Made by a program: the position numbers and the translations under genes
Notes under the pieces: model-generated
Told to the model about the DNA's origin: nothing
The model's database searches: none
Seen by the model: the letters and a program-made list of their open reading frames with translations, nothing else
IMG/VR virus record: IMGVR_UViG_3300016486_001479
DNA length: 64,000 nt
Reading direction: 5' to 3' (one strand)
DNA from: an uncultured virus (IMG/VR IMGVR_UViG_3300016486_001479)
Taxonomy: Duplodnaviria > Heunggongvirae > Uroviricota > Caudoviricetes
Shown here: positions 14,806 through 63,496 of the stretch, piece after piece
Position numbering within the stretch: the stretch's first letter is position 1
Layout: each line of letters begins with the position of its first letter

Positions 14806-14843
14806 AAAAAGCACCCTCTGCAAAGATGTGGTGCTTTTTTTTT
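14806..14843 (+). terminator. intrinsic terminator between Y-like RNAs and Ro60
   Basis: AAAAAGCACC...GGTGC followed by T8. Confidence 0.65.
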
Positions 14844-14897
14844 ATGCGCCAAAAACAAAGAATTAATAGAATAACAACAATTATAAACAACGACGAG

Positions 14898-20097: not shown

Positions 20098-20118
20098 TGA
20101 TGCAGGTTTCCATATCAC

Positions 20119-20165
20119 GGTGCGAGAGCTTTTGGCTCATGGGACATTCGATTGTCCCCGCACCA
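20119..20165 (+). ncRNA. mini-tRNA-like element, family A copy 1
   Basis: GGTGCG/CGCACC stem, one hairpin GAGC/GCTC, T-like arm GGGACA-TTCGAT-TGTCCC. Confidence 0.65.
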
Positions 20166-20169
20166 CTAC

Positions 20170-20218
20170 GGCGGATGCATAAGCACCAGTTCAGGTTAAA
20201 GTCCTGAATCCGCCACCA
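20170..20218 (+). ncRNA. mini-tRNA-like element, family B copy 1
   Basis: GGCGGA-TGCATAAGCACCAG-TTCAGG-TTAAAGT-CCTGAA-TCCGCC-ACCA. Confidence 0.7.
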
Positions 20219-20292: not shown

Positions 20293-20300
20293 CAACAAAA

Positions 20301-20312
20301 GTTCATTGACGT
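20301..20312 (+). promoter_or_regulatory. boxA-like antitermination element
   Basis: GTTCATTGACGT; relatives GTTCTTTGACAT at 39119 and 62984, GCTCTTTGACGT at 37575. Confidence 0.6.
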
Positions 20313-20328
20313 GTTGGAATTTAAAAAA

Positions 20329-20382
20329 GGCGTGAGAGTCCATTAGGGATTCGCGGGAGATTCGTTTCTTCCCACGCCACCA
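20329..20382 (+). ncRNA. mini-tRNA-like element, family A copy 2
   Basis: GGCGTG-A-GAGTCC/GGATTC-GC-GGGAGA-TTCGTT-TCTTCC-CACGCC-ACCA. Confidence 0.7.
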
Positions 20383-20383
20383 C

Positions 20384-20429
20384 GGCCCCTGCATTAGCAC
20401 TAGAGGAAGAGAAAGTCTTCCTGGGGCCT
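20384..20429 (+). ncRNA. mini-tRNA-like element, family B copy 2
   Basis: GGCCCC-TGCATTAGCACTAG-AGGAAG-AGAAAGT-CTTCCT-GGGGCC. Confidence 0.65.
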
Positions 20430-20432
20430 CTT

Positions 20433-20513: not shown

Positions 20514-20559
20514 GCCGCTTGCATTAGCACTAGAATAGGTGAGATTCCTGTTAGCGGCA
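20514..20559 (+). ncRNA. mini-tRNA-like element, family B copy 3
   Basis: GCCGCT-TGCATTAGCACTAG-AATAGG-TGAGATT-CCTGTT-AGCGGC-A. Confidence 0.65.
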
Positions 20560-20562
20560 CTT

Positions 20563-20705
20563 CCTGGAGTAGCTCAGTTGGTTAGAGCACCACCCTGATA
20601 AATGAGGAAAAGGATTGAAACGCAACCTGCGTGGCCACAAGGGTTGTGAAGTAGAGAATTGGAATCGAACGGTGGGGGTCGGGGGTTCGAGCCCTTCCTC
20701 CAGGA
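20563..20705 (+). tRNA. tRNA-Ile(GAT) with 69-nt insertion at the 3' side of the anticodon loop
   Basis: CCTGGAG...CCACC-CTGATAA-[20602-20670]-GGTGG...TTCGAGC...CTCCAGG-A. Confidence 0.75.
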
Positions 20706-20711
20706 CAATTT

Positions 20712-20878
20712 CATGCGATAGCTTAGATATGTTAAAGCACCACACTGATAATGTGGAAGACGAACCGAAAGGACTCAGTTCGGGATGCAAACACAAAAAC
20801 TCACTTGCGTGGCCACAAGAGTGAGTTAGTAGTTGATGTTGAAGAAATGATGGGGGGCAGAACCCTCTCGCGGGACCA
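20712..20878 (+). tRNA. degenerate tRNA-Ile(GAT)-like with ~90-nt insertion before the T arm
   Basis: CCACA-CTGATAA-TGTGG anticodon arm; ends TCGCGGG-ACCA; T loop aberrant. Confidence 0.55.
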
Positions 20879-20938
20879 TTATAATGAGCAGTGAGATGCT
20901 TGGGGAGGCGCTGTTCTCATAAACAACTTCCCCCACAT

Positions 20939-23029: not shown

Positions 23030-23101
23030 GGGGCGTTAGTTCAGAGGTAGAACATCAGGCTTTAACCCTGTACGTCAGGGGTTCGAACCCCCTACGCCCC
23101 T
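23030..23101 (+). tRNA. tRNA with TTA anticodon (ochre suppressor)
   Basis: GGGGCGT/ACGCCCC acceptor, GTTC/GAAC D stem, TCAGG-CT TTA AC-CCTGT, AGGGG-TTCGAAC-CCCCT. Confidence 0.85.
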
Positions 23102-23173
23102 CTTGAATTACAGATAGAAAAAGGCCGCCCTTCGAACAGTTTTTATATTTGTAAAATTGATTACATTTGTAGA

Positions 23174-32563: not shown

Positions 32564-34891
32564 ATGGATGAGTTATTAGCAAAAAGTACTGGCGAAACCC
32601 TGATTGAGCACAGTCGAAAGGTTGCTGAGGTTGCGGAATATATTGCCGACTCAGTTATAGTTACCTCAGATACAGAAAAAAAACATTTTATATCAGTTAT
32701 CCGCAAAGCGGCGCTTCTTCATGATATTGGAAAAGCCGAAACCGAGTTTCAAACTTTACTCCGAAACTCTTTAAATGGTAAATCCACTAAAACAAAGAAA
32801 AAAGACATTATTTTTTCGCACAATGAAGTGGGATGGGCATTTGTAAGAATGTACATCAGCTTTGACTCAGAGGAGCTAAGACAAGTTGCTGAAGCAGTAT
32901 ACTGGCATCACGGCATTCATAATGTAATGGGCAAGCACACAGATGCGTCTATTCTTGAGTGGGTTCGGAAGAAGAAAGATAATTCTATCGATAGAATGAT
33001 TGAATTCGTCGAAGAATTATTTCCTGGCCAAGTCCTTGATAGGCCAAGAATAGCTGAAACATCAAGCCCTCATTACTATATTAGAGATTTTAACGAGACG
33101 AGCGACCTCAACGTTGACAACACGATTATTCGCATGTGCGTGGTAAGAGCTGACCACTTAGTTAGTGAATTAGGAGATTTTACAGTTGATGAAATTAAAA
33201 AAACTATAAATGAACGACTGATTCAACAACACCGTTACGCTTTTACTAAATGCCCATATCCTGGACATGAAAAAAGATGGACACAACAAGTTGCTTTAGC
33301 ATCTAGGACGACCTCGTTTAAGACTGTTCAAATCAACGCCCCTGCTGGATACGGAAAAACACTTCTAGGTTTACTTTGGAGCACTGTCAACAATAAACGG
33401 CTTATTTGGGTGTGTCCAAGAAATGCTGTGGCACAATCAGTGTACCACAACATCTTAAGAGAGCTTAAAAATGCAGGAATTGAAACTTCAGTAGAATTAT
33501 ATTACGCTGGAAAACAACAGGCCTCAAATTCAGATTTAGGAATAAAGTTTTCAAGCGATATCATTGTAACCAACGTAGATAACTTTTTACGTCCGACAAA
33601 AGAGCATTGTAACGATATTGATTTATTAATGGTATCCGATGCAGATGTTGTATTTGATGAGTATCATGAGCTAGTGTCGGACGGGGCTTTACTGGCTGGT
33701 TTTATAAATCTAATGAAGGTAAGACATCAGATGACAAACGGACGCTCTTTACTGCTGTCCGCAACCCCACTTGATTTATCAGTTTATTGGGATTCATTTG
33801 ACAACTCAACAGCCCATTTGCCTGGAAAATTTGAACATGCTCCTGCTGTCCACAATAAATCATACAAACTCACTACAAAAGAGGGGCGTTCTAGAATATC
33901 TGAAAGTAAAAAAAGCCCTGTTCTTTTTATCTCTAATTCTATAGTTGAGTGTCAAAGAAATAAGCACAAACACAATGAAGATACTATTTTGTTTCATGGA
34001 AAATTTGAGGACGACGACAATCAAGCGCGATTAAGCGTTATTCTTCAAAACTATGGAAAGCAATCCGACAGAAATATTGAAAAAGAACACGTAATAGCGA
34101 GCCCAATAGCACAGGCATCTTTAGATGTTTCTTTTAGGCATTTGATTGAAAGTTGCCTGTCTCCAGAAGCTACTCTTCAAAGAGTAGGCCGTGTCGACAG
34201 GTGGGGAGATTATGATGACCAGTCTGAAATTCTAACATATCGAATCCCTTCAGATAATTCTGGACGAAGTGAGAATAGAGCCCGCGAAACAATGTACTCA
34301 CGAGAACTGTCTGACTTATGGTTTAATTTTCTAACACAAAGTCAAGGGGAAACAACTTTAGATAACCTATATTCTTTGTATAATAAACATTGTAAAGAAA
34401 ATGAAGCCTTAAGAAGAATCTGGTTAAACACAAAATATCGACAAAGCCGCATGGATTTACATGAGAAAATTTATCCTAATAGGTTAACGATTAAAAGTGA
34501 AAACTCGGAAGTCCATAAAATACAAGAAACTAGCTATAGAAGCAAAGGAAATGAAATCTTTTTTACTGCTAAAAAATGGGCAAAAAAAGAATGGACACAG
34601 CCTAAATCAACTCCTATTTATGATTCTATACCCGAAGACTTCCATGAAGACTCCAACGCACTAGCAAAAGTATTTAAGATAATTAAACATCTTAACGATG
34701 AGCCAGATTGCGCTTTTGATTACACTAGATTTTTAAAAGTTCCAAAGCATAGCACAAATCTTGAATTATTGCGTATAATGGCGAAATACAAATCAATGCC
34801 GTATCCGAGGATGGATATGGAATATCATGACATTTACGGATATATTAAAAAAACTTTACTGGAAGAGTTTGACCAGCCAATTTACGAGTAA
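32564..34891 (+). CDS. cas3: CRISPR-associated HD nuclease/helicase Cas3 (no Cas2 fusion)
   Basis: LIEHS, LLHDIGK, HN, WHHG, RADH; APAGYGKT, DEYH, SAT, QRVGRVDRWG; adjacent cas6 and array. Confidence 0.92.
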   Translation: MDELLAKSTGETLIEHSRKVAEVAEYIADSVIVTSDTEKKHFISVIRKAALLHDIGKAETEFQTLLRNSLNGKSTKTKKKDIIFSHNEVGWAFVRMYISFDSEELRQVAEAVYWHHGIHNVMGKHTDASILEWVRKKKDNSIDRMIEFVEELFPGQVLDRPRIAETSSPHYYIRDFNETSDLNVDNTIIRMCVVRADHLVSELGDFTVDEIKKTINERLIQQHRYAFTKCPYPGHEKRWTQQVALASRTTSFKTVQINAPAGYGKTLLGLLWSTVNNKRLIWVCPRNAVAQSVYHNILRELKNAGIETSVELYYAGKQQASNSDLGIKFSSDIIVTNVDNFLRPTKEHCNDIDLLMVSDADVVFDEYHELVSDGALLAGFINLMKVRHQMTNGRSLLLSATPLDLSVYWDSFDNSTAHLPGKFEHAPAVHNKSYKLTTKEGRSRISESKKSPVLFISNSIVECQRNKHKHNEDTILFHGKFEDDDNQARLSVILQNYGKQSDRNIEKEHVIASPIAQASLDVSFRHLIESCLSPEATLQRVGRVDRWGDYDDQSEILTYRIPSDNSGRSENRARETMYSRELSDLWFNFLTQSQGETTLDNLYSLYNKHCKENEALRRIWLNTKYRQSRMDLHEKIYPNRLTIKSENSEVHKIQETSYRSKGNEIFFTAKKWAKKEWTQPKSTPIYDSIPEDFHEDSNALAKVFKIIKHLNDEPDCAFDYTRFLKVPKHSTNLELLRIMAKYKSMPYPRMDMEYHDIYGYIKKTLLEEFDQPIYE

Positions 34892-35992: not shown

Positions 35993-36847
35993 AAAGATGC
36001 AGTTTTGTTTCGTAACCATAAAGACACGAAAGATAAATTGTTTCTTGGAAATAAAGACGCAGGTGAGATTCGAAAGGGGCTCCCTCAATTTGAGTCCTAC
36101 TTAACACATCATCAGATTTCAAATGTCTTGCACGTGCTTTTTAATGAAAGACCAGTCCCTTTTTTTGGGGCCTGTGTCTATCAGAAGCAGGATAGATTGA
36201 TTGAGAAGGCAAAAAACAGCTTCCTAAAGATTGAAGTGCCCACTTGGGTTACTAAAAAAGGGGATGTTCGAGAAATTAAAGAGATATGCCGCACAAGGAA
36301 AGCTTTTTGGAACTCAAACGCCAAAATAACAAACCTCACTTGGGATTTGATTGAAGCCTACCTAAAAGAGCATTATGGTGATTTCATCACAATGCTCATA
36401 GAGGCAACGGGCCACTCAAATATTAGAAAAGTTCCAGTAGAAGATGTGCCTGATATTTTTAAGCAATCTTTAAACTCAGCCTCTAAACAAGCTTTGCTCT
36501 CTCATTTTAGAGAACGTAAAGTTGGAAAAACGGGTGTCGTTAACTGGCTGAGAAATAAGACTCCTACTGATAAAAACGACCCTATGGAGATGGCTAAGGA
36601 CTCTATCGCAAAAGGACTTATGCTGGTTGTTCCCAATGGCATAGATAAAACGATTCGCTTGAGCGGAACCCTTATTGTGCCGCTTGATGAAGAAGACAAA
36701 GAAGTCCTTGAAAACTCAGCTGGTGTGGCAACTATATTGGATGGAGGCTTGGTTTGGATTGAAAGAGTGGTATCGGGAAACAGGCTAAGCATTGAGGGTT
36801 ATGATAGAGTAGGAGATATATCCACTAAACTTACAATAGAGTCATGA
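35993..36847 (+). CDS. cas5: Cas5-like subunit (Cas5fv-like); start in N gap
   Basis: Position between cas7 and cas6; ISNVLHVLF and C-terminal SGTLIV...AGVATILDGGLVWI resemble the Cas5fv RRM core. Confidence 0.55.
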   Translation, partial: KDAVLFRNHKDTKDKLFLGNKDAGEIRKGLPQFESYLTHHQISNVLHVLFNERPVPFFGACVYQKQDRLIEKAKNSFLKIEVPTWVTKKGDVREIKEICRTRKAFWNSNAKITNLTWDLIEAYLKEHYGDFITMLIEATGHSNIRKVPVEDVPDIFKQSLNSASKQALLSHFRERKVGKTGVVNWLRNKTPTDKNDPMEMAKDSIAKGLMLVVPNGIDKTIRLSGTLIVPLDEEDKEVLENSAGVATILDGGLVWIERVVSGNRLSIEGYDRVGDISTKLTIES

Positions 36848-37560
36848 GAATACAGTTAAAATTTAGCTCCGCAAAGGAGTTGGTTCCAAATAACCTTAAG
36901 CACGTTGTGAGTTACATTCATAAATGCTTAGGAAAAGATAATCTCTATCACAATCAACCTTCTAACTATGTTATCTCTAGGATGATTGGAGGAACGATTA
37001 CAGAAGGCGGAACATCCATTGAGTACGCTCATGGAGGCAGTTTGTTTATATCCTCTGGAGACGAGAGCTTTTTAAATAAACTTCTCGCAGGAGCAGGAGC
37101 AAATAAAGATTTTGGATTTGGAATGAAACTGACGGGCATTGAGTTCATCCAAGAAGACTTGTATGATGGTTTTACTGTTTTTAAAACCACTGAAACTGGC
37201 ATTTTGCTAAAGAAAAAAAATGGAGGCCGTTATGAATTTCACACCCTAAATGATGATGGGTTTGAAGAGGAGTTGTCTGAACAAACAAAAAGACGTTTGT
37301 CAAACATTGACAACACTTTAAAATTTGACGGCTTTAGAATTGAAGTTCAGAAATCAAACCACAATAAGGTTAGAGATATTTTGATGAGTTCTTCTGGAGC
37401 CCCAAGTAAAACCAGTGTGAACAAAGCAAATGTATGCAGCGTTGTTGTACATTGCAACAAAAAGATTGCTCAAGCTATTCACGACTATGGTTTGGGACAA
37501 TCTACAGGAATAGGGTTTGGAATGGTTATGGAGATTACAAACTCAAAACTCTACATCTGA
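36844..37560 (+). CDS. cas6: CRISPR endoribonuclease Cas6 (not Cas6f-like)
   Basis: C-terminal G-rich loop YGLGQSTGIGFG; N-terminal YIHKCLG...YH. Confidence 0.88.
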   Translation: MRIQLKFSSAKELVPNNLKHVVSYIHKCLGKDNLYHNQPSNYVISRMIGGTITEGGTSIEYAHGGSLFISSGDESFLNKLLAGAGANKDFGFGMKLTGIEFIQEDLYDGFTVFKTTETGILLKKKNGGRYEFHTLNDDGFEEELSEQTKRRLSNIDNTLKFDGFRIEVQKSNHNKVRDILMSSSGAPSKTSVNKANVCSVVVHCNKKIAQAIHDYGLGQSTGIGFGMVMEITNSKLYI

Positions 37561-37646
37561 CTCCTTGTGCAAGCGCTCTTTGACGTCTTTTTTCCATCCA
37601 GTACATGTGGTTGTTGCTTGTTTATTAGCGCATTAGCCACAGGTAC

Positions 37647-38114
37647 CCTGTTTATCATCTCATTCTGCAAGGGAATCACAACTCTTCCTCAAATCGGTAT
37701 TCATTATAGTCTCCTGTTTATCATCTCATTCTGCAAGGGAATCACAACTGAACAGCAAAATTATTCAAGGCGATTGCCCCTGTTTATCATCTCATTCTGC
37801 AAGGGAATCACAACATAAAGGCTTTCTGATGTATCAATTCCCTCCTGTTTATCATCTCATTCTGCAAGGGAATCACAACATGGCAAGCAAATATGTTTCT
37901 GTTTTGGTACCTGTTTATCATCTCATTCTGCAAGGGAATCACAACACCATCTTGGTAATTCTTTATTTGGCTGTGCCTGTTTATCATCTCATTCTGCAAG
38001 GGAATCACAACTGTTGGGTGCTGTGGCTAATCGTAATCCGCCTGTTTATCATCTCATTCTGCAAGGGAATCACAACTACCTGCCATCTGTTTGAAATATT
38101 TTATCTCCTGTTTA
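37647..38114 (+). CRISPR. CRISPR array part 1: 7 repeats, 7 spacers and an 8-nt repeat remnant
   Basis: CCTGTTTATCATCTCATTCTGCAAGGGAATCACAAC (36 nt) at 37647, 37713, 37779, 37844, 37910, 37976, 38041; spacers 29-30 nt. Confidence 0.97.
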
Positions 38115-38299
38115 AAACGGAATTTCTGCTGATTATTTTTTAGTTTAAGAAGGATGTCTTCGATTTGCTTTATATCTCTGAAATTCTTTGACTTTTGACA
38201 GCAGATTTTGGTGATTTCAGCAAGTGCAAGCCCTTTCAATGTGTTCTCTGTGTTTACAGCTGTTAAAAGATAATTTAGACGGTCGATTTCATTTTCCAT
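38054..38299 (-). CDS. foreign-looking ORF fragment embedded in the CRISPR array
   Basis: 81-aa ORF with A-rich upstream region; reads through spacer 7 into repeat 7. Confidence 0.45.
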   Translation of the reverse strand: MENEIDRLNYLLTAVNTENTLKGLALAEITKICCQKSKNFRDIKQIEDILLKLKNNQQKFRFKQEIKYFKQMAGSCDSLAE

Positions 38300-38367
38300 T
38301 GTTGTTGTTTAATCTGAAATAGGCTGAAATTTATTCGAGATAAATTTTGTTTAGAGAATAATGCTCA

Positions 38368-38667
38368 CCTGTTTATCATCTCATTCTGCAAGGGAATCAC
38401 AACGGGATGCACGGGGCGCATTCAACTTTTAAACCTGTTTATCATCTCATTCTGCAAGGGAATCACAACTTCGCCTAAGGTGGTTATTCCATCGTTAGAC
38501 CTGTTTATCATCTCATTCTGCAAGGGAATCACAACAGCTTGTAGGTATTTGAAGTTGCTCCCTCCCCTGTTTATCATCTCATCCTGTAAGGGAATCACAA
38601 CATTTTGCACTTCTTGGTTTGACATCATACCCCTGTTTATCACCTCATCCTGTAAAGGAATAATTTA
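38368..38667 (+). CRISPR. CRISPR array part 2: 5 repeats (last two variant/degenerate), 4 spacers
   Basis: Repeats at 38368, 38434, 38500, 38566, 38632; 30-nt spacers. Confidence 0.97.
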
Positions 38668-38869
38668 CTACTATTTCACAATACACTAAAAATCAGTAAA
38701 TTGTAAAATAATTTTTAAATATTTACATAAAAACTTGGAATAGATGCAACTTATTGTATATCTTTGCGTCTCAATTATAGAACGAGAAAATATTTTTCCC
38801 AACTATATATTGACAACTAATTCCTTCTCGTCCCTGAGAAATAAAACTTGAAGGTAAAGAACAAAAACA

Positions 38870-38953
38870 ATGAAAACACTCCCAAACATAAATTGGTCGT
38901 CATCAAGATGGAGTTCTAGGAAAAACCTAGGGCCTGACCGAGTTATGCGTTAA
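38870..38953 (+). CDS. attenuator leader peptide MKTLPNINWSSSRWSSRKNLGPDRVMR
   Basis: 27-aa ORF after TATCTTTG promoter (38759), nine consecutive Trp/Ser/Arg codons, followed by terminator. Confidence 0.85.
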   Translation: MKTLPNINWSSSRWSSRKNLGPDRVMR

Positions 38954-38978
38954 TGTGAATTCATAAACGATATCAAGG

Positions 38979-39010
38979 AAAGCCCTAGGAGAAATCTTAG
39001 GGCTTTTTTT
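38979..39010 (+). terminator. attenuator terminator before the Ser/Arg/Trp tRNA operon
   Basis: AAAGCCCTAGGA-GAAA-TCTTAGGGC-T7; competing strand CCTAGGGC at 38926-38933. Confidence 0.88.
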
Positions 39011-39025
39011 GTGTCCAAAAAATAA

Positions 39026-39111
39026 GGAAGGTACCTCGCAAGTGGTGTGGAACAGGGCTTGAACCCCTGGGTGTCGTTTGCTCGGCAGGGGTTCGAACCC
39101 TCTATCTTCCT
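39026..39111 (+). tRNA. tRNA-Ser(TGA)
   Basis: CAGGG-CT TGA AC-CCCTG, long variable arm, T arm. Confidence 0.8.
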
Positions 39112-39143
39112 CAATACAGTTCTTTGACATGTTGGGTTTTTAT

Positions 39144-39231
39144 GGAAGTGACGCGAATGTTGTCATTGTCGCACCAGTCTTGAAAACTGGCTCACTTAAT
39201 TGTGACGAGGGTTGGATTCCCTTCGCTTCCT
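39144..39231 (+). tRNA. tRNA-Ser(TGA)
   Basis: CCAGT-CT TGA AA-ACTGG, long variable arm. Confidence 0.75.
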
Positions 39232-39267
39232 CAAAGTCGTGACTCTCGACTCAAACTAGAGCCATAT

Positions 39268-39357
39268 GGCGAGGTACTCAAATGGTAAAGAGGCCGCTTT
39301 GCTAAAGCGGTAGGGCAGTAAAATGTTACGTGGGTTCGACCCCCATCTTCGCCTCCA
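39268..39357 (+). tRNA. tRNA-Ser(GCT)
   Basis: CCGCT-TT GCT AA-AGCGG, encoded CCA. Confidence 0.9.
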
Positions 39358-39360
39358 TAT

Positions 39361-39445
39361 GGATAGATACTCAAATGGTAAAGAGGCTGTCTTGGAAAGG
39401 CAGTAGGCCCTTCGGGGTGCGAGAGTTCGAACCCCACTTCGTCCA
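39361..39445 (+). tRNA. tRNA-Ser(GGA), 3' half poorly paired
   Basis: CTGTC-TT GGA AA-GGCAG; mismatches in T and acceptor stems. Confidence 0.7.
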
Positions 39446-39496
39446 CCCCTGGGCGGTTTTGTACTTTTTGAAGCTATGTATTAGAAATAATACACC

Positions 39497-40321
39497 ATGC
39501 CTAGAAAAGAAAAGAAGTTTCATTACATCTACAAAACCACTAATACCCTAACGGGTAGATATTATATTGGGATGCATTCCACCGATGTAGTTGAAGATGG
39601 ATACCTGGGTTCAGGTAAGCGTCTTCGACGTTCTGTCAATAAGCATGGAGCTGAATGTCACTCCAGAGAGATACTTGAGTTTTGCAATTCTCGAAAGGAG
39701 TTGATTGATAAGGAAAAAGAGGTCGTGACATTGGAGGAAATTGCTAAGAATGACTGTATGAATCTAATGCCAGGAGGCAGAGGGGGATTTATCAGTGATG
39801 AGCATCAGAGGCATAGGTCTATTTGTGCTGCTAAAGCAGCTAAGAAAAAAGCAGATGAAAACCCGAAGTTTAAAAAGAAATGGGAGGAAGCTAGGTTAAA
39901 AGGATTAAAAAAAGCCTACAAAGAGGGAAGAATACCAAACATTCAAGACCATTATGATTGGTCAGGAAAAGAGCATACACCTGAGACAATTAAAAAGTTG
40001 AGAATAGTAAAGAAAGGAAAAGGAATTGGTAAATCTAATTCTCAATTTAATACTTGCTGGATTAATAATGGAGTTGATTCTAAAAAAGTTAACAAACAGA
40101 CTATTGAAGATTTCTTTAGTCAAGGGTGGGTAAAAGGTAGAAAGATGAAAGATGGGTTTAAAAACAAATTTAAGCTCTCACAGGAAGAAGTTAATAAAAG
40201 AAAAAACCTCATGTCTCATATTGATTTTAATAAAAGAGGTTGGGTGAAACAAGCTTGCGAAGCTTTGAATATGAAGCCTGGGGGAGTTAAAAGATTTGTA
40301 ACCACATATATAAGAAATTAA
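39497..40321 (+). CDS. free-standing GIY-YIG (Seg-like) homing endonuclease with NUMOD3-like motif
   Basis: YIYKTTN..TGRYYIGMHST....DGYLGSG; HTPETIKKL. Confidence 0.88.
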   Translation: MPRKEKKFHYIYKTTNTLTGRYYIGMHSTDVVEDGYLGSGKRLRRSVNKHGAECHSREILEFCNSRKELIDKEKEVVTLEEIAKNDCMNLMPGGRGGFISDEHQRHRSICAAKAAKKKADENPKFKKKWEEARLKGLKKAYKEGRIPNIQDHYDWSGKEHTPETIKKLRIVKKGKGIGKSNSQFNTCWINNGVDSKKVNKQTIEDFFSQGWVKGRKMKDGFKNKFKLSQEEVNKRKNLMSHIDFNKRGWVKQACEALNMKPGGVKRFVTTYIRN

Positions 40322-40323
40322 AT

Positions 40324-40397
40324 GGCTCCGTAATTCAATTGGACAGAATATCAGTTTTCTAAACTGAGGGTTCCGAGTTCGAATCTCGGCGGGGTCA
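40324..40397 (+). tRNA. tRNA-Arg(TCT)
   Basis: TCAGT-TT TCT AA-ACTGA cloverleaf. Confidence 0.9.
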
Positions 40398-40451
40398 CTT
40401 ATGGTTTGTATCGACCAGGTCAGGATTAACCTGACCAAACAGATACGATAC

Positions 40452-40534
40452 GCTGGTCCTACTTCATAGGTGAGAGAGACAGATTCCAACCCTGTCGCCT
40501 TCGGGATTTGTGGGTTCGACTCCTACGACCAGCG
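40452..40534 (+). tRNA. tRNA-Trp(CCA) with long variable arm
   Basis: GCTGGTC/GACCAGC, loop TT CCA AC, variable arm CGCCTTCGGGATTT. Confidence 0.7.
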
Positions 40535-40561
40535 CTAAAATTACAACGTTAGAATTAATAC

Positions 40562-40645
40562 ACGTCGGCTATTCATTGGTGAGACAGAGGGTCTCCAAAA
40601 CCCTTGCCCGTAAGGGATGTGCAGATTCGACTTCTGCTCGGCGTG
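40562..40645 (+). tRNA. tRNA-Trp(CCA) with long variable arm
   Basis: AGGGT-CT CCA AA-ACCCT, variable arm CCC-GTAA-GGG. Confidence 0.75.
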
Positions 40646-40688
40646 CTTATTTGAAACAAAACCCAATTGAATGCGTATATTTGCTTAC

Positions 40689-41690
40689 ATGAGAAAACTA
40701 GCAACCATTCGGAGAATAGAATCACTACATCCTATTAAAAAAGCTGACCGTATCGAACTTGCAAAAGTTGGTGGTTGGAGGTCAGTGGTCAAAAAAGGAG
40801 AATTCAATGTTGGCGACATGGTAGTTTATTGTGAGATAGATTCTTTATTGCCTGTGAAAGAAGAATTTGAGTTTCTTCGAAAATCTTGTTTTAGAGAATT
40901 GCCATATGGAGTTTCGGGGTTCCGATTAAGAACAATGAAACTTCGAGGTCAAATATCACAAGGCCTCATACTTCCTTTGTCAGTTCTTTCTTCAGGAGAT
41001 TTTAAAATTGGAGAAGATGTAACTGAGCAGTTACAGATAATCAAGTACGACCCACCTATTCCAAAAGAAATGATGGAAAGTGCAATTGGAGTTTTTCCGT
41101 CGTTTATTAAAAAGACAGAAGAGGAAAGAATTCAAAACTTAGATTCGGAGATAGAGCTTTTAAAGGGGCGAACTTTTTTCGTAACTGAAAAACTTAATGG
41201 ACTCTCGATGACAGTTTTTCATAACGCAAACGAATTTGGCGTTTGTGGAAGAAACTATCAATATAAAAAACTTGAAAGCAATGCTTTGTGGTCTTCGGCG
41301 ATAGAAGAAGGGCTAGAAGAGAAATTAAAAGCTTACGGTAAAAATATTGCTATTCAAGGCGAGTTGGTTGGGCCTGGAATCAGCGATAATCCATATGAGC
41401 TTGTGACAAAAGAATACCGAGTTTATAACATATTCAACATTGATGAATACGCATACCTCTCGAAAAAAGATTGTCAAGAATTAGCCACTCAAATGAGCCT
41501 AAAGTTAGTTCCACTTGTCTCAGCGTCTATGGCATTGCCTGAATCTGTAGATGCCATCCTAGAAATGGCTGATGGACCAAGCCAGTTAAATCCAGAGACT
41601 CAGAAAGAAGGAGATGTTTGGGTAAGCGGCGATGGACAAGATAGAGTCTCTTTTAAAGTTATTTCGAATCATTTTTTATTGGAGGAATGA
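40689..41690 (+). CDS. ATP-dependent RNA ligase (DRB0094-like)
   Basis: RKLATIRRI..I..ADRIE, YCEIDS, LRGQISQGL, TEKLNG, IQGEL.G, EG.V, SFKVIS. Confidence 0.9.
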   Translation: MRKLATIRRIESLHPIKKADRIELAKVGGWRSVVKKGEFNVGDMVVYCEIDSLLPVKEEFEFLRKSCFRELPYGVSGFRLRTMKLRGQISQGLILPLSVLSSGDFKIGEDVTEQLQIIKYDPPIPKEMMESAIGVFPSFIKKTEEERIQNLDSEIELLKGRTFFVTEKLNGLSMTVFHNANEFGVCGRNYQYKKLESNALWSSAIEEGLEEKLKAYGKNIAIQGELVGPGISDNPYELVTKEYRVYNIFNIDEYAYLSKKDCQELATQMSLKLVPLVSASMALPESVDAILEMADGPSQLNPETQKEGDVWVSGDGQDRVSFKVISNHFLLEE

Positions 41691-41709
41691 TTTTCGTATA
41701 TTTACATTT

Positions 41710-41781
41710 GGCCCCGTAGCTCAGTGGAAGAGCAATTCCCTTCTAAGGAATCGGTCCCAGGTTCGAATCCTGGCGGGGTCA
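41710..41781 (+). tRNA. tRNA-Arg(TCT)
   Basis: ATTCC-CT TCT AA-GGAAT cloverleaf. Confidence 0.92.
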
Positions 41782-41957
41782 CTAAATGCAAGAATGGAGA
41801 TTTATCTCCTGAGACGCCTAATGCTTTACACACCCTGGGTTCCTAGCCCAGGCAATGTGGTGCTAGTAAAGCTTCTTGTGTTTTTTAAAGACAGCAAATG
41901 AAACTTTTTTCGAAAAGCTCCGTATAATAGTAATATAAACAAAAACAAATAACGCTT

Positions 41958-42368
41958 ATGAAATCTTACGCATCTATTATCATTGTATTTATTTCAATGT
42001 TTTTTCTGCCCTCTGCTTTTGCAGCAGAACCCGTCTATAACGACGAAGAATCCATTGCCGTGTATGAACCCGTCGTTACAATCACTGCTCTAGGAGGAAA
42101 TGAATATCAAGTTAAGATTGAGGTCTGGCTGCCAAAAAACACCACAGGAGGCGTTGTTTCTAATACTGTCAATGGTGACACACGCTCTATTGACATCGAT
42201 ATTGTTGGAGGAGTACCTATCAACGGGCCTCATCTTGAAACTTATAGTTTAGTTGTTACACGCCTTTCAGGGGAAAACGAAATACTTACAGAAGTTTTTG
42301 AGTTAACACAAGGTAAGCCTAAGAAGAAGAAAGGGCAGACTGTTGTGGTTTATTCAGGTGTAATTTAA
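41958..42368 (+). CDS. secreted hypothetical protein
   Basis: Signal peptide ending AFA. Confidence 0.65.
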   Translation: MKSYASIIIVFISMFFLPSAFAAEPVYNDEESIAVYEPVVTITALGGNEYQVKIEVWLPKNTTGGVVSNTVNGDTRSIDIDIVGGVPINGPHLETYSLVVTRLSGENEILTEVFELTQGKPKKKKGQTVVVYSGVI

Positions 42369-42478
42369 AAATACTTGGAATGTAGGCTTGGAAGCAGCCA
42401 TCATCTAAAGAGTAGCGACGTGAGGTGTTAAAGGGACCATCTGAGAGCTTTTAGCGTAATAGCACACCGAGTATTTTT
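42367..42478 (+). ncRNA. stand-alone mimic of the 23S rRNA L11-binding domain (H43/H44)
   Basis: GGAATGTAGGCTTGGAAGCAGCCATCATCTAAAGAG...AGCGTAATAGCACACC closed by a 12-bp helix. Confidence 0.8.
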
Positions 42479-42491
42479 GGTATTATTTTAA

Positions 42492-42868
42492 CTGGCACTG
42501 AAAAGCCCATAACGGATGACAACTCCAAGGGTAGTTCCATCGAAAGATGGCGGTGTAGCGGGTGGAGATACAGTGACTCCGTAAAGAAATGGCACGATAG
42601 CTATGCGCCTCAGTTAAAGACCTTGTGTCGTCCTCTGCTCTGTTCCTCGGAACAGCAAGACGGTCCCGCTGGACAGAAGGCCTCTGATTCCAGCCGCTGA
42701 CATTTAAGAAACGGGCCCTAATAAATATCCCCACAGGAGGCTAGTGTGTCGTCGCATGAATAGAAGTGGGTAGTGCCACAGAGATGGGTAGTTGATGCCG
42801 TATCACGAAATCAGACAGGAACGATTCCCTGACAACAAGCGTAGCTCTAACCCTATTGTGGGGACATC
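42492..42868 (+). ncRNA. candidate structured ncRNA(s), unassigned
   Basis: GC-elevated stretch without a credible ORF; hairpins (CCATC-GAAA-GATGG) and closing helix TCCCCACA/TGTGGGGA. Confidence 0.45.
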
Positions 42869-42931
42869 TTAAAAGCAAGGCTCCTTCGGGAATGTGGAAG
42901 CATAAGTTCTTGTATTTGTTGGGTGAGATTT

Positions 42932-43015
42932 GGCCAGGTGGCAGAATGGATATTGCGCCAACCTCCTAAGTTGGTGTCCGAAAGGCACTTGTGGGTTCGA
43001 ATCCCTCCTTGGTCA
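42932..43015 (+). tRNA. tRNA-Arg(CCT) with long, Leu-like variable arm
   Basis: CCAAC-CT CCT AA-GTTGG; variable arm TGTCCGAAAGGCA. Confidence 0.8.
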
Positions 43016-43035
43016 CAAAAATTTTACCGTTTTGA

Positions 43036-43338
43036 ATGGAATACATAATACCTTTTCAAATAGTGCACATCAAAAGCAGGAGCTTCATTCATGAATATAA
43101 AAATCCGCCTGAATTAAGCGACCTGACTCCTGGAGATGTATTTTTGATAGAATCACAGTTGTCATCTATTGGGCCTCATAGTTTGCATCCTATAGTTTTT
43201 ATGGGTGGAGTTAAGACTCGTTCTATAACGCGCTCAGGATTTAAACTTACCACTTTCAAATATAAATTTCTAGGCACAGCAAGAGTAGAGGTTGGAAACA
43301 TGATAATGACAAACATATATCTGGAGACATGGCCATAA
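43036..43338 (+). CDS. hypothetical protein
   Basis: 100-aa ORF. Confidence 0.5.
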   Translation: MEYIIPFQIVHIKSRSFIHEYKNPPELSDLTPGDVFLIESQLSSIGPHSLHPIVFMGGVKTRSITRSGFKLTTFKYKFLGTARVEVGNMIMTNIYLETWP

Positions 43339-43551
43339 TCGGAGCTACTTATAATAAAACGATTTGGAAGACTTCCCATATTGCGAGGATTACCCTGGCT
43401 GCGACGAGTGAAACTTTTTAAAGTTTTATACGTATATTACAAATAAAAACTCCATGCCAAAGTTAAGATGGTTCATTCCCTTGGGGAATACAAAACTCAT
43501 GTAACGAGCTGTGGTCGGAAGAAACCGACTGCGGCTGTAACCACATGAGTC

Positions 43552-43809
43552 ATGAAAAACACGAAGAGGGCGTATCGACGCAACAAGAAACGAGTGAAGT
43601 TCGAAAAGCGGCTTAACGACTGGTTCTCTCACTGGGGTGATACTCCCTGGAAGTACGAGAACATCGAGAAAGCTCGCTTGGGAGAAGACTGGACCTTTCT
43701 GCGCACTACTTGGAAATCATGCAGTTGTGATGGGTGTTCACCTAATTATAAGCGGCCACCGAAGCCTAAAACCCAAAAAGAGATATGGGACGAATTATAC
43801 GACTGCTGA
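43552..43809 (+). CDS. basic small protein with CSC..CS motif
   Basis: 85-aa ORF. Confidence 0.55.
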   Translation: MKNTKRAYRRNKKRVKFEKRLNDWFSHWGDTPWKYENIEKARLGEDWTFLRTTWKSCSCDGCSPNYKRPPKPKTQKEIWDELYDC

Positions 43810-43916
43810 TTGTAGCAGTTGTCCTAATAACAATGTCAGGCTGCGCGTCGAAGGAAAGATGCGCAGCGTATGACGATATTCATCTGCAAGAGTAACATTT
43901 GCGTCTATTTATAGGC

Positions 43917-44279
43917 ATGAATAAGCTTAGAAGTCAAATACGCAAGGCGCTACTGGAAATTGAATTTCCTAGCCAGGATTACTCTCAAGAGAATGAGTCT
44001 ATGGGTACGCCAGTCATGATTGAGACTGAACCTCTTAAGGCGTTCTTGGACCAAGAAGGAATTTTTGGCATGGAGTCAGAACTTATATCCATACTAGAGA
44101 AGCAGCCTACTCCAGAGGTTAAGTCAGCTTTGGAATCAGAGATTAAATTTAAACAATCCAACAAACAAGTTGAAACACTTTCCGTTGAGGAAATGTTAAA
44201 CTTGTATTTGGAGTTGAATAATCTTCAACAATACTTTGGCGATATAATATCTTTTGCACACAACAGCTACAACGTATAG
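43917..44279 (+). CDS. hypothetical protein with LRSQIRKALLE motif
   Basis: Preceded by CTATTTATA. Confidence 0.65.
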   Translation: MNKLRSQIRKALLEIEFPSQDYSQENESMGTPVMIETEPLKAFLDQEGIFGMESELISILEKQPTPEVKSALESEIKFKQSNKQVETLSVEEMLNLYLELNNLQQYFGDIISFAHNSYNV

Positions 44280-44282
44280 CTT

Positions 44283-45403
44283 ATGAAAGAGATATCATTA
44301 GACCGTTCATTCAATCTTCCACACTACAATCGTTTAGACGAAAAAAGAATGGAAGGACTAAGAAAAATAGTACGAAAGACACTTTTAGAAATCTCTTCGA
44401 CTGAGTGCGATGGGTGTGCTTATTTTGATATGGATTCTATTTTAAAATATGTAGAATTTGAGTATCCTCTATATTCAATTTTAGAAAAATGGAAAACTGC
44501 TAAACTTGTTTTTATTAGCCCTAAACAGTACATTTACAAAATTGCAAGCGGCTTTGGAGGCCTTAGTTATGATGATGCTATGGGACCAGCTGAGCTTGAT
44601 GATAGAAAAAAGTAAAGACGTATGCTGAGGCAATGAAACAAGGAGATAAGTTTCCTATTGGATTTTACACAAAAGGAAAAAGCAATCAAGAAGGACGACA
44701 TAGAGCTATAGCAGCCATGTTGCTTGGGGCTAAATTAATCCCTGTCATTGAAAAAGTTGATTTATCTGATAAAGATGTTTCTTTTTTAATAGAAAAATGG
44801 AAAAACATGGAGTTCGAAGAGCTTAATCAGCTTTTTATCAAAATGGGTTTTGATGAAGGCATTTCCAGTCTAGGATATAACTCTCTTAAAAGGAGAGTTG
44901 CGAATAAAAAGAAAGAGAAAGGTATTGACTTACATGAATCTTCAATGGATTTTAGAACTTTTATTCACAAAGCAATTCACAGTGTAATTCATGGACGAGT
45001 TAAGAAAACTCACATGGTTATCGCTATGATAGAGGTTCATGACCCTAAAGAAGTGAACAAGCTAATAAAAGCCGCAAGAGAAGCCATGAGAGGCATGGGT
45101 GTCAAAGTTCCGTTCAAATGGAAGTTTCCACAAGGGTATCACATGACTGTTAAACTTGGTCAATTGCCTTTAGGCATTAAAATGCGTGGCGATGTAAACA
45201 AGGACATAGAGCTTAGCGTTGAAACACTAGGGATTAGCGATGACGCAATTGCTTTTGGGGTAAAGGGGTACTTTAGTAAAAATGAAATCCAACATATAAC
45301 GCTTAGATTTAAAGACGTGCCAAGCGCATCTAATAGTATTGAAAACTGGATTCCCCTGGCAAGTCCTTTTTCAGTAATAGGAACAGTAAAACAATTAACT
45401 TAA
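44283..45403 (+). CDS. ParB-like + 2H phosphoesterase protein (one gene split by probable A-run indel at ~44610)
   Basis: QEGRHRAIAA; two HxT motifs (YHMTV, QHITL); frames join as DDRKVKTYAEAMKQG. Confidence 0.65.
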
Positions 45404-45677
45404 TCATGCACGACGGAAAACTAGACCACTCAAAAGACAATGAGGAGGTGACAGCAAGGTTCACTTTATCTCAAGAAGACCGAGAAGGTTTTCAAAAAAT
45501 AAACTGTGACGGATGTTGCACAGGCATCAAGGTAAACGTAGACTCCTTCAATGCTCCCAAAGAGATGGTTAACCTTCTCACCACAGCTCAGCTAGTAAGA
45601 GCAATAGAGGAGCTTGTCGAATACCGTAACAGCGGACTTCGAGAGTAACCTTCTCCTACAATACCCGTATATAGGGC

Positions 45678-46229
45678 ATGAGTTATACAGAAATTTACAA
45701 GTTTAAGAAAGATGGTGACGCTGAGGAAATCGGCGAAGTCAAAAATGCTTTCAGAGGAGCTATGGCCATCTGGACCCATTTAGAAAAGAAATATCTCCCC
45801 AAGTTTATTCCAGAATGGGCGAAATCTATAGGCGAAGACCTAACTAAAGACTACTCTAGAATATCCTCAATGAAACAAGAGGACATGAAAGAGGTATGGG
45901 ATATTATCAAACACCCATACATCACCGATACCCACAAGATAGCTATGAACTCCACTTTCGACAATGTCGTTGTGAAGCGAGAGAATCTAGAGAAGCTAGT
46001 TTTGGCGTTCCGTGAGTTTGAGTTTGAAACATCGCTCAAAGAACAAGCAGATTTAATAGAGGAGGCTCTCAAAGATGACCCAGACCTGCTTGGATTGGGC
46101 TGGAATCAAACTTCTGTCAATGGAGACACTTGGGCAAACTCTGGTGAGTATAACGAGGAAACAGAGGAACATGCTTCTTATAATCTATTAAAAGAGAAGA
46201 AGCATTGGTTCATGTTTGACGACATGTAA
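45678..46229 (+). CDS. hypothetical protein
   Basis: 183-aa ORF after promoter motif. Confidence 0.7.
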   Translation: MSYTEIYKFKKDGDAEEIGEVKNAFRGAMAIWTHLEKKYLPKFIPEWAKSIGEDLTKDYSRISSMKQEDMKEVWDIIKHPYITDTHKIAMNSTFDNVVVKRENLEKLVLAFREFEFETSLKEQADLIEEALKDDPDLLGLGWNQTSVNGDTWANSGEYNEETEEHASYNLLKEKKHWFMFDDM

Positions 46230-60823: not shown

Positions 60824-61297
60824 GTGAGTAGAAAAGGAAAGGTTGACCTACAGTCAGTAAGTGATTTTAAAGTCATAATAGAATCTAGCAAAAGCATAAG
60901 AGAGGTTTTAACTAAGCTTGGATATAAAAATCCAAGCGGCTCAATGCATTCAAAAGTGAGAGAAAGAGTTACACGAGATGGTTTATCTATCACTCACATG
61001 ATTGGAAGATATGATTCTGGAAACGGAAGAAGAATTCCACTAAGTGATATATTAGTCGAAAATTCAACTTACTCTAATATTGCTAGACTGAAAATTAGGT
61101 TAGTAAATGAAGGGTTTTTAGAGTATAAATGTGTCAGTTGTAGTAATGAAGGCGATTGGATGGGTAATCCAATAGTTTTGCAATTAGACCATAAGAACGG
61201 AGTTCGTGATGACCATAGGTTGGAAAATTTAAGATTTATGTGTCCTAATTGCCACAGCCAAACAGCAACATTTGGAGGTAAAAACTGTAGAAAATAG
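60824..61297 (+). CDS. HNH homing endonuclease
   Basis: CVSC...LQLDHKNG..DDHRLENLRFMCPNCHSQT; followed by a tRNA 3' remnant GTTCGAACCCTAC (61301). Confidence 0.9.
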   Translation: MSRKGKVDLQSVSDFKVIIESSKSIREVLTKLGYKNPSGSMHSKVRERVTRDGLSITHMIGRYDSGNGRRIPLSDILVENSTYSNIARLKIRLVNEGFLEYKCVSCSNEGDWMGNPIVLQLDHKNGVRDDHRLENLRFMCPNCHSQTATFGGKNCRK

Positions 61298-61335
61298 TCA
61301 GTTCGAACCCTACTATGCCCACACTACAACTTTAT

Positions 61336-61464
61336 GGGGAGTGTTTTATTACACTTACTCTTTCTAGCGTTACCTGCATAGCAGTGTTGAAGAACAGAGT
61401 TACTTCGGTTCAATTTTTTGCTAAACACAAGAATAGATAGGTTCGATTCCTATACTCCCCACCA
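61336..61464 (+). ncRNA. tRNA-scaffolded Y-RNA-like element 4
   Basis: GGGGAGT/ACTCCCC-ACCA, T arm ATAGG-TTCGATT-CCTAT, internal ACTCTTTCTAGCGTTACCTGC-ATA-GCAGTGTTGAAGAACAGAGTTACTTC. Confidence 0.75.
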
Positions 61465-61527
61465 TCTTGCTATGATGGATTGTGACCAAGAGGGGCCACC
61501 CGATGACAATCACAAACAGGGTTTGAC

Positions 61528-62304
61528 GTGCTCCGAAACGGAGATTTGTTTAATGAGATGCCGATACCAGAGCTAATGCGTATGGTTTCTTCTTTTTCAA
61601 TTCAAAACATGCTATCCAGAGACGCATTTAAAGCTAGAATGGACCGAGAGCAACCAATTGCTATCCACGAGCTTTTAGTCCCAATTCTTCAAGGCCATGA
61701 TAGCGTCCATTTGAGGACTGAGATTGAAATTGGAGGTTCAGACCAATTGTTCAACTTCACCATTGCCAGACGAATGCAAGAACTTGATGGCCAGAAGCCG
61801 CAAGTGAGTTTGATGGCTCCAATTATTCGAGGAACAGACGGAAGGAAGATGTTAAAATCATTCGACAACTGTATCTTCCTTGATGGAACCCCAGGAGGCA
61901 CTTTCGGGGCCTGTATGAGCATATCTGACGCTGTAATGGACGAAGAGTTCATTCCACTCCTAACAGACCTAAAAACCTTTCCTGAGAGCCCCGTATTGAG
62001 AAAGAAAGCTATGGCCAAAGATATTGTTCGCCAGATTCACGGCCAAGAGGCTGCAGAGCGGGCTCAATCGGGATTCGAGAACCAGGTTCAGAAGAAAGAA
62101 ATCCCAGCTGTTATTAAAAATATTGAAGCAAAAGACTTGATTCAAGCTGTAGTTGCAGTCAGAGATTGTAGCAACTCAGCAGCAAGAAGATTGATTTCAG
62201 AAGGAGGTGTTCAGGTGGAAGGAGGTGCGGTAACTGAAAACGGCCCAGTAGAGTCGGGTCAGGTTGTCAAAGTTGGCAAAAGAGAATTCGTTAAGATTTT
62301 ATAA
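61528..62304 (+). pseudogene. tyrS: N-terminally truncated tyrosyl-tRNA synthetase
   Basis: PILQGHDS, EIGGSDQLFN, GTDGRKMLKS, S4-like C-terminus; no HIGH motif, in-frame TGA at 61504. Confidence 0.75.
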
Positions 62305-62596
62305 GTATCAACCCCTCTGATTTATTGACCTAATAAGAGCTGTAGAAACACCATTTATTGATTGAATTTGACTCAGAGTTCTTTGGCTTTTAGATTGAAT
62401 ACCAGATATTGGAGCTATTTCTTGACTATCGGTATAATAAACTTTCAATGCACAACCACGACTTGCATTGCAATTGGTGTTCCCACACAGAGAGACTTCT
62501 ATGTCAATCCAAATCTGCCTGGTCACATCTGCCCAGATAGCAGACAGTCGTTGGGGCNNNNNNNNNNNNNNNNNNNNTCAAAACAAAACACATTCA

Positions 62597-62722
62597 ATGT
62601 TCAACTTTACAGACATAGCGATTTCAAACCAACCGATGCCGATGGCAGCGACTGGCTGTGCGCCCGATTATAGCGGGAGCAAGCAGAATGACCTGGTTAT
62701 GTCTAAACTGAACAACAGTTGA
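62597..62722 (+). CDS. putative attenuator leader peptide MFNFTDIAISNQPMPMAATGCAPDYSGSKQNDLVMSKLNNS
   Basis: A-rich start context; overlaps antiterminator strand GAATGACCTGG (62686-62696). Confidence 0.6.
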   Translation: MFNFTDIAISNQPMPMAATGCAPDYSGSKQNDLVMSKLNNS

Positions 62723-62745
62723 TGTAGAGACATAAACCATTAGGG

Positions 62746-62793
62746 AAAACCCCCAGGTCATTCAATCAAACGAATGACCTGGGGGTTTTTTTT
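62746..62793 (+). terminator. attenuator terminator before the Pro/Asp/Ala tRNA operon
   Basis: AAAACCCCCAGGTCATTC/GAATGACCTGGGGG-T8. Confidence 0.85.
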
Positions 62794-63066: not shown

Positions 63067-63140
63067 GGTGGCGCATCATATTGGCGCATGTTGCCTCCCT
63101 GTCACGGAGGAGATTGAGGATTCGAATTCCTTCGTCACCG
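63067..63140 (+). tRNA. tRNA-Asp(GTC)
   Basis: CCTCC-CT GTC AC-GGAGG. Confidence 0.85.
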
Positions 63141-63375: not shown

Positions 63376-63449
63376 GGTGGCGCATCATATTGGCGCATGT
63401 TGCCTCCCTGTCACGGAGGAGATTGAGGATTCGAATTCCTTCGCTACCG
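63376..63449 (+). tRNA. tRNA-Asp(GTC), near-duplicate of 63067
   Basis: Nearly identical sequence. Confidence 0.85.
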
Positions 63450-63496
63450 CCCTTGGTCATTTACGCTTATGACCTTAATAAACAAAAAAACGACAC

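Follow-up and report, generated by a model that had tools for sequence, protein, structure and literature searches.

A leader reading frame and a terminator precede a phage tRNA array

The DNA analysed here (64,000 nucleotides (nt) of the IMG/VR record IMGVR_UViG_3300016486_001479, hereafter the window) comes from salt-lake metagenomes and belongs to a phage-like genome of very large size; nearly all of its genes lie on the + strand. At the locus in question, an array of clustered regularly interspaced short palindromic repeats (CRISPR) is followed by 204 nt of AT-rich sequence, a short leader open reading frame (ORF) with a terminator, and an array of transfer RNA (tRNA) genes. A sequence-only reading of this DNA had proposed that the leader is an attenuator whose control codons match the anticodons of the downstream tRNAs. 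Its anatomical elements, namely an ORF of 27 amino acids, nine consecutive control codons, four pairing segments, nine downstream anticodons and an RNA ligase gene inside the cluster, were all found where it had placed them.

The leader ORF (38870..38953, + strand) comprises 27 codons from an ATG start to a TAA stop and encodes MKTLPNINWSSSRWSSRKNLGPDRVMR. Its ATG is the first in about 100 nt, and the start context (aacaaaaaca ATG AAA) is A-rich and devoid of a Shine-Dalgarno motif, like 56 other gene starts that we listed; gene starts in the window lack Shine-Dalgarno motifs and carry A-rich sequence 5' of the start codon. The leader ORF is presumed to be translated.

Inside the ORF lie the nine putative control codons TGG TCG TCA TCA AGA TGG AGT TCT AGG (38894..38920, + strand). 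Between them, the six downstream anticodons decode the six Ser codons plus AGA, AGG and TGG, a set of nine to which every control codon belongs, and all six anticodon species are represented. The correspondence claimed by the sequence-only reading holds and is statistically exceptional: among ~81,000 stop-free windows of nine codons in the six frames of the 64-kb window, the control run is the only one that scores nine of nine. It is also the longest run of its kind, the next longest spanning six codons in the window and seven in the 141-kb sequence of the nearest record, G001. Run-length counts drop six- to seven-fold with every extra codon, and a nine-codon run is expected ~0.01-0.02 times in this much sequence. 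The control run is located 105 nt upstream of the tRNA array, on the same strand and in an ATG-started ORF; by arithmetic from the run-length counts, the chance of finding such a run within a few hundred bases upstream of the array and on the right strand is ~3 in 100,000. The nine codons of the set make up 10.3% of all codons in the phage genes, and nine set codons drawn according to usage would cover all six anticodon classes with a probability of 0.096. Among the Arg and Ser codons, the phage uses AGA, TCA and TCT most often; the tRNAs of the array thus serve codons that it needs.

Predicted alternative structures of the leader

The four segments follow each other, with segment 1 (TTCTAGG) at 38914-20, segment 2 (CCTAGGGC) at 38926-33, segment 3 (GCCCTAGG) at 38982-89 and segment 4 (CTTAGGGC) at 38996-39003, directly before seven T at 39004-10. 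All three of the mutually exclusive structures that had been proposed are predicted, with trp-like energetics. Hairpin 1:2 (38893..38944, + strand) has a core of UUCUAGG (38914-20) paired with CCUAGGG (38926-32) and an extended stem in which 38896-99 pairs with 38938-41, which places the control codons in its 5' arm; the energy is -10.6 kcal/mol for the core and -16.3 kcal/mol for the extended form. In the antiterminator 2:3 (38926..38989, + strand), CCUAGGGC (38926-33) pairs with GCCCUAGG (38982-89), which together with small inner stems yields -23.5 kcal/mol. The intrinsic terminator 3:4 (38975..39012, + strand; -21.5 kcal/mol, seven T at 39004-39010) stops short of the first tRNA-like gene by 14 nt and is not listed by a consensus scan. 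A gap of this size after the T run offers too little room for a promoter, and transcripts of the first tRNA-like gene must therefore cross the terminator. The whole leader folds with -54.1 kcal/mol (z -6.3 versus shuffles).

Predicted co-transcriptional folding is in line with a switch of this type: hairpin 1:2 forms first, 2:3 becomes the optimum for a brief period once segment 3 is out, and 1:2 together with 3:4 prevails thereafter. Path estimates, which are heuristic upper bounds, give refolding barriers of 12.8 kcal/mol from 1:2 to 2:3 and of 9.9 kcal/mol from 2:3 to 3:4, and in this model the barriers are large enough for a kinetic switch. To account for the ribosome, a footprint was moved codon by codon along a transcript that still lacked segment 4. 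An A site at 38876-38912, a range that includes the first seven control codons (38894-38912), leaves 2:3 with a predicted probability of about 1.0, and an A site at 38918-38945 covers segment 2, leaving 2:3 unable to form.

The complementarity between the leader and the terminator stands out in several controls. Paired with the 5' arm of the terminator, the preceding 100 nt reach -18.1 kcal/mol in their best duplex, versus -8.9 +/- 2.1 in shuffles, and none of 1000 dinucleotide shuffles offered a complement as good. Scanning the window for terminator-like sites (a hairpin of -12 kcal/mol or lower, then six or more T) returned 11 sites, and the strongest upstream complements belong to those at 39004 (z -5.2) and 62786 (z -4.0; 0 of 200 shuffles in each case). 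These are the two of the 11 that precede tRNA clusters, and only they are significant, the remaining nine ranging from z -2.8 to +1.6. With one mismatch at most, the CCTAGGGC motif occurs just 12 times in the window, three of them within 38926-39003, and is thus not a dispersed repeat. No Rfam leader family (Trp_leader, His_leader, Thr_leader, Leu_leader and others) matches the stretch from position 36000 to 46000 at E values up to 1, and in the whole window neither a leader family nor a T-box reaches its gathering score.

The tRNA array and its protein genes

Between 39026 and 43016, the + strand yields nine tRNA-like matches in Rfam. Their anticodons, read by eye from the anticodon arms, are in order TGA, TGA, GCT, GGA, TCT, CCA, CCA, TCT and CCT, in agreement with the earlier list. 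Measured against gathering scores of 29 bits for tRNA (RF00005) and 47 bits for the tRNA-Sec model, five of the nine reach the tRNA score (those at 41710, 40324, 39268, 42932 and 39361); ARAGORN calls six, and acceptor, anticodon and T arms are visible by eye in all nine. Two have irregular D arms. The sequence-only reading had missed that four of the nine are non-canonical and that seven carry long variable arms, among them the CCT gene and the two CCA genes. These three consequently have the class-II shape, with anticodons that normally occur in short-arm Trp and Arg tRNAs. We also considered a tRNA-Sec identity for the four genes below threshold and rejected it in view of many non-standard pairs and of anticodons that read TGA or CCA and not TCA.

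The array opens with two TGA genes that ARAGORN does not call. The first (39026..39110, + strand; anticodon loop CTTGAAC; 28.7 bits with the tRNA-Sec model) combines a long variable arm with an irregular D arm, and the second (39144..39230, + strand; 35 bits with the tRNA-Sec model) has a long variable arm and the T loop TTGGATT. A tRNA-Ser(GCT) (39268..39357, + strand; 52.8 bits) and a tRNA-Ser(GGA) (39361..39448, + strand; 35 bits) follow, both called by ARAGORN. The tRNA-Ser(GGA) has mismatches in two of five T-stem pairs and in one acceptor pair and is possibly decayed. As a side observation, the three tRNAs with the Ser anticodons TGA, TGA and GCT (39026-39357) are paralogues and carry the discriminator T in each case; bacterial tRNA-Ser has the discriminator G. 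Next comes a gene for a GIY-YIG homing endonuclease (39497..40321, + strand), then a canonical tRNA-Arg(TCT) (40324..40398, + strand; 64 bits; ARAGORN) and the two CCA genes with long variable arms. One of them has the discriminator G and is called Trp by ARAGORN (40452..40535, + strand; tRNA-Sec 29.2 bits), the other has the discriminator C and no ARAGORN call (40561..40645, + strand; tRNA-Sec 37.4 bits).

The RNA ligase gene (40671..41690, + strand) is confirmed by matches to PF21189 (E 1.4e-36) and PF09414 (E 3.8e-21). Its product consists of an N-terminal OB domain and a nucleotidyltransferase domain and aligns over its full length (residues 7-336 of 339; E 3.7e-69) with the Naegleria gruberi enzyme (5cot_A). 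A second canonical tRNA-Arg(TCT) (41710..41782, + strand; 71.3 bits; ARAGORN) comes next, and further on lies the CCT gene with its long variable arm and discriminator A (42932..43016, + strand; 51 bits; ARAGORN). Besides the homing endonuclease and the ligase, the array contains a third protein gene, an ORF of 136 amino acids without relatives in the collection viral_contigs.

Genomic surroundings and relatives

Upstream of the leader, Cas3 (32564-34891) and Cas6 (36844-37560) are encoded as parts of a type I CRISPR-Cas module. Just 3' of cas6 lies a phage CRISPR array with 12 copies of a 36-nt repeat (37647..38665, + strand), directly upstream of the leader, which the sequence-only reading had missed; the AT-rich stretch 38666-38869 separates it from the leader ORF. 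As degenerate repeat copies are found at its right end and the array is co-oriented with the cas genes, it is probably transcribed rightwards, toward the leader, and its transcript may run into the leader. Between 38103 and 38365 the array is broken by non-repeat DNA. A pattern scan with the repeat gave 0 matches in viral_contigs and 0 matches in the collection genome_contigs, and therefore no clue to the host. Elsewhere in the window (14826-16418), the phage encodes a Ro60/TROVE-domain protein with a vWA domain.

The nearest record, G001 (141,051 bases, virus class), is 100% identical across the leader region. An RNA ligase gene that is likewise 100% identical was found on a metagenome contig of 446,956 bases (locus L030), which represents the same phage, and 24 salt-lake DNA runs, none of which is registered as RNA, contain the window stretch. 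Among GenBank phages, a megablast search with 38600-43100 gave no match, and a distant blastn search gave tRNA-sized matches only, in 11 records. We found 12 RNA-ligase loci in viral_contigs and 42 in the collection metagenome_contigs, which apart from L030 are at most 60% identical. No such tRNA array was seen at the loci covered by ARAGORN (12 of 12 viral loci and the longer 26 of the 42 metagenome loci) or by Rfam (10 of the 12 viral loci). Scanning viral_contigs for the pattern of segments 2, 3 and 4 gave 0 matches. A degenerate motif of the D arm of the two CCA tRNAs hit eight loci in viral_contigs, none of them with a tRNA, and these were dismissed as chance matches.

The tRNA genes of other phages show different arrangements upstream. 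The Ser tRNAs of the phage L005 are preceded by a plain promoter-like site and no leader, the Phe/Thr tRNAs of L006 by a structured RNA and no leader, and in the region of the IAS virus with two Ile2, an Arg(TCT) and an Arg(CCT) tRNA the small ORFs hold no excess of matching codons. In other phage contigs GOLLD RNAs (319-327 bits) were noted a few kb from distant RNA ligase homologues, at 6269-6676 in L002, 5606-6019 in L003 and 10368-10774 in L006; L003 also has a tmRNA.

A second leader-like element and the other tRNA clusters of the window

A weaker example of a comparable design spans 62597..62793 (+ strand). It begins with a second leader-like ORF of 41 codons (62597-62722), which contains PMPMAATGCAPDY. 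Also within this ORF, an exact 11-nt copy of the terminator 3' arm (62686-96) constitutes a candidate antiterminator. A strong terminator follows from ~62748, with its T run starting at 62786, and the element is predicted to go through the same series of folds as the first leader. The cluster behind it consists of tRNA-Pro(TGG), three Asp(GTC), Ala(GGC) and Ala(TGC), and in G001 also two Tyr(GTA). The codon match of the second leader is weak (8 of 13 codons, a level met by 52 of 67,756 windows). Thus, the second element mildly supports a regulated terminator in front of tRNA blocks and is no proof of codon sensing.

Several further observations concern this region. A run of N at 62559-62577 lies upstream of the second leader, and ORFs crossing there are unreadable. 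Two further Asp(GTC)-like tRNAs, each with an odd D arm, are found at 63067-63140 and 63376-63452; ARAGORN misses both, and Rfam scores the first with 35.8 bits in the window and the G001 counterparts with 35.8 and 35.5 bits. The interval 60824-62304 harbours an HNH endonuclease gene and then an ORF of 258 amino acids that matches the C-terminal two-thirds of tyrosyl-tRNA synthetase (positions 122-414 of 421 of the PHROG profile) and adjoins the tRNA cluster, so that the synthetase gene may be split or truncated.

Apart from these clusters, the window contains a Leu(TAA) cluster, upstream of which no TTA-rich leader was found; a repeated element, TGCATTAGCACTAGA, flanks the two tRNA-Leu(TAA) genes. 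Mini-helices that resemble tRNA acceptor and T arms and end in CCACCA or ACCA occur at 20100-20218, 20300-20432 and 20515-20560. Two tRNA genes with a GAT anticodon loop (20563-20705 and ~20717-20880) have apparent inserts of at least ~70 nt after the anticodon, the former scoring 49.9 bits over 143 nt. A tRNA with the anticodon TTA (23030-23102; 66.2 bits in Rfam) would read the stop codon TAA. General recoding of TAA was nevertheless rejected, with TAA being the commonest stop (38 of 69 predicted genes). The leader ORF, too, stops at TAA.

Proposed mechanism and alternative explanations

Taking the anatomy, the codon match and the predicted alternative folds together, we consider it fairly probable that the leader is a ribosome-mediated, leader-peptide transcription attenuator that gates the phage tRNA array and its RNA ligase. 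Transcription would enter from a promoter in 38666-38869 or by read-on from the CRISPR array, and the 27-codon leader would be translated while being transcribed. During fast passage over the Trp, Ser and Arg(AGR) codons, the ribosome would cover segment 2 and hairpin 1:2 would later re-form; segments 3 and 4 would then pair, and RNA polymerase would stop at the T run in front of the first tRNA. Slow decoding of any control codon would hold the ribosome on segment 1, so that 2:3 pairs, the terminator is blocked and the tRNA genes are transcribed. Read-through at the terminator would thus be conditional. The RNA ligase, the homing endonuclease and the distal tRNAs are probably co-transcribed with the proximal tRNAs, and we infer that all nine tRNAs form one transcription unit. 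The tRNAs made in this way are those that decode the control codons, and the circuit would therefore act as a negative feedback, an on-demand top-up of decoders.

The promoter part of the original proposal stays putative. The box TATCTTTG lies at 38759..38766 (+ strand), as claimed, and fits TAnnTTTG, which we take to be a Bacteroidota-type motif; it is a candidate promoter. In the non-coding 23% of the window, the motif is mildly enriched (16 of 36 matches on the + strand versus 11 of 34 on the - strand). The promoter motif TATTTACAT is not enriched in the window, and a scan with the sigma-70 consensus returned no more sites than expected by chance.

A number of observations weigh against the attenuator. 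Over the whole window TAnnTTTG is not enriched (70 matches versus 66.6 expected), so that the promoter is no more than putative. The geometry of the stalled ribosome fits the first seven control codons only, for a ribosome on the last one or two (TCT, AGG) already masks segment 2. Unlike in trpL, a ribosome at the stop codon leaves segment 2 free. With the stop codon beyond segment 2, transcription of a rapidly translated leader can terminate only if 1:2 forms anew in the wake of the ribosome. In the finished transcript at equilibrium the terminator wins whatever is masked, and the attenuator model consequently rests on kinetics; the trp terminator is likewise favoured at equilibrium on the complete transcript. 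Segments 1 and 3 are alike, as are segments 2 and 4, and 2:3 could stem from a simple hairpin duplication. On the side of the products, four of the nine tRNA-like genes stay below the Rfam thresholds, with tRNA-Sec as their best match (28.7-37.4 bits), and one further tRNA, tRNA(GGA), has a poor T stem. Comparative data add to these points. No relative with the leader was found among GenBank phages, viral_contigs and metagenome_contigs, where the sole match to the leader region is the same phage (G001, L030). The leader is invariant in the contigs of three of four salt-lake runs (X20, X22 and X23), the fourth, X24, being almost uncovered before 39046, so that no population signal emerged. In the phage L005, terminator-like hairpins stand directly before tRNAs without a leader, and in the window itself no such leader accompanies the Leu(TAA) cluster or the Tyr gene at 60657.

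One alternative is an ordinary terminator at the end of a transcript that stems from the CRISPR array or a small gene, with a chance ORF in front of it and tRNAs that are expressed via leakage or unrecognised internal promoters. The CRISPR array (37647-38665) is probably transcribed toward the site and needs a terminator, a position 25 nt after the stop codon of an ORF corresponds to the usual gene structure, L005 shows a similar terminator-before-tRNA layout without a leader, and, given that many windows were screened, rare coincidences are expected somewhere. We nevertheless regard this explanation as unlikely: it has to accept as coincidence a nine-of-nine run that is unique in six frames of both 64 kb and 141 kb and that forms part of the 5' arm of a hairpin, the 3' arm of which complements the terminator better than any of 1000 shuffles, a complement present only at the two terminators that precede tRNA clusters.

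The structural evidence as such does not depend on codon choice and would also suit a regulated terminator that responds to translation status in general, to a protein or small RNA (e.g., Cas6 or crRNA-processing) or to polymerase speed. The second leader, with its clear antiterminator and its weak codon match (8/13), is in favour of such a codon-independent switch. The switch would, in contrast, offer no explanation of why nine codons match six anticodons exactly, and we rate this possibility as less likely still. A functional small basic peptide with its own terminator, whose sequence matters rather than its decoding, would be in accordance with the good start context and with a terminator following the ORF. 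It accounts neither for a hairpin inside the ORF that competes with the terminator nor for the codon match, and appears very improbable to us.

The physiological trigger of the proposed attenuator may include anticodon-nuclease defence, a notion that the RNA ligase in the array supports by association only. A bolder extension of the attenuator would combine the leader, the nine tRNAs and the RNA ligase into one inducible tRNA-damage regulon, a phage counter-defence that senses attack via decoding speed. A host anticodon nuclease, or starvation, would deplete the readers of UCN, AGY, AGR and UGG and cause stalling in the leader, which would induce replacement tRNAs together with a nick-sealing ligase. 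The CCA and CCT tRNAs with long variable arms may escape the nuclease, and the same logic would apply in front of the Pro/Asp/Ala/Tyr cluster. We put this extension forward as a speculation that is rather doubtful in its entirety.

Phage tRNA genes are usually seen as constitutive codon-usage helpers or as spares against tRNA-cutting defences, and to our knowledge it is largely unknown how they are switched on. If the attenuator holds true, the phage would gauge decoding speed at exactly the codons that it can rescue and would produce tRNAs on demand. A mechanism that textbooks describe for amino-acid operons would then also apply to tRNA genes and to viruses, and it would provide a sequence signature that predicts which host tRNA shortages a phage expects.

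Comparison with known systems

The classical leader-peptide attenuators of enterobacteria (trpL, hisL, pheL, thrL, leuL, ilvL) control amino-acid operons. The phage leader resembles them in its short ORF, in control codons located in segment 1, in the mutually exclusive 1:2, 2:3 and 3:4 pairings and in a terminator before the structural genes, and it would sense several amino acids, as thrL and ilvL do. In contrast to them, it would control tRNAs, a homing endonuclease and an RNA ligase and not biosynthetic enzymes, a difference that counts against placing it in this class. It also differs in a match at the level of isoacceptors (AGA and AGG, no CGN), in being phage-encoded and in a stop codon beyond segment 2. 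All described leader-peptide attenuators that we know of control genes for amino-acid biosynthesis or synthetases. A search of the full-text literature, in which most subscription journals are not covered, returned no paper on leader-peptide attenuation of tRNA genes; PMC3082878 concerns pheL and is not relevant to this question. An attenuator-like leader of E. coli tRNA-Phe genes, considered as a possible precedent, was looked for in the 105 nt upstream of pheV (K-12), where none is present.

T-box riboswitches likewise sense the status of tRNAs and switch between terminator and antiterminator before translation-related genes. Unlike the mechanism proposed here, T-boxes bind uncharged tRNA via a specifier codon and without a ribosome, and the phage leader has no T-box match. 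The co-occurrence of tRNA genes and an RNA ligase in one phage genome recalls T4, which employs its tRNAs together with Pnkp and Rnl1 against the anticodon nuclease PrrC; the ligase of the present phage is of the Naegleria gruberi type and not an Rnl1. We know of no leader-peptide control described for phage tRNA clusters with RNA repair enzymes. The pheM leader of pheST comes close in one respect, as it also subjects a component of the translation apparatus to ribosome-mediated attenuation. There, a synthetase is controlled and one amino acid is sensed, whereas in the proposed phage attenuator the tRNAs themselves are the products, which would close a direct feedback loop.

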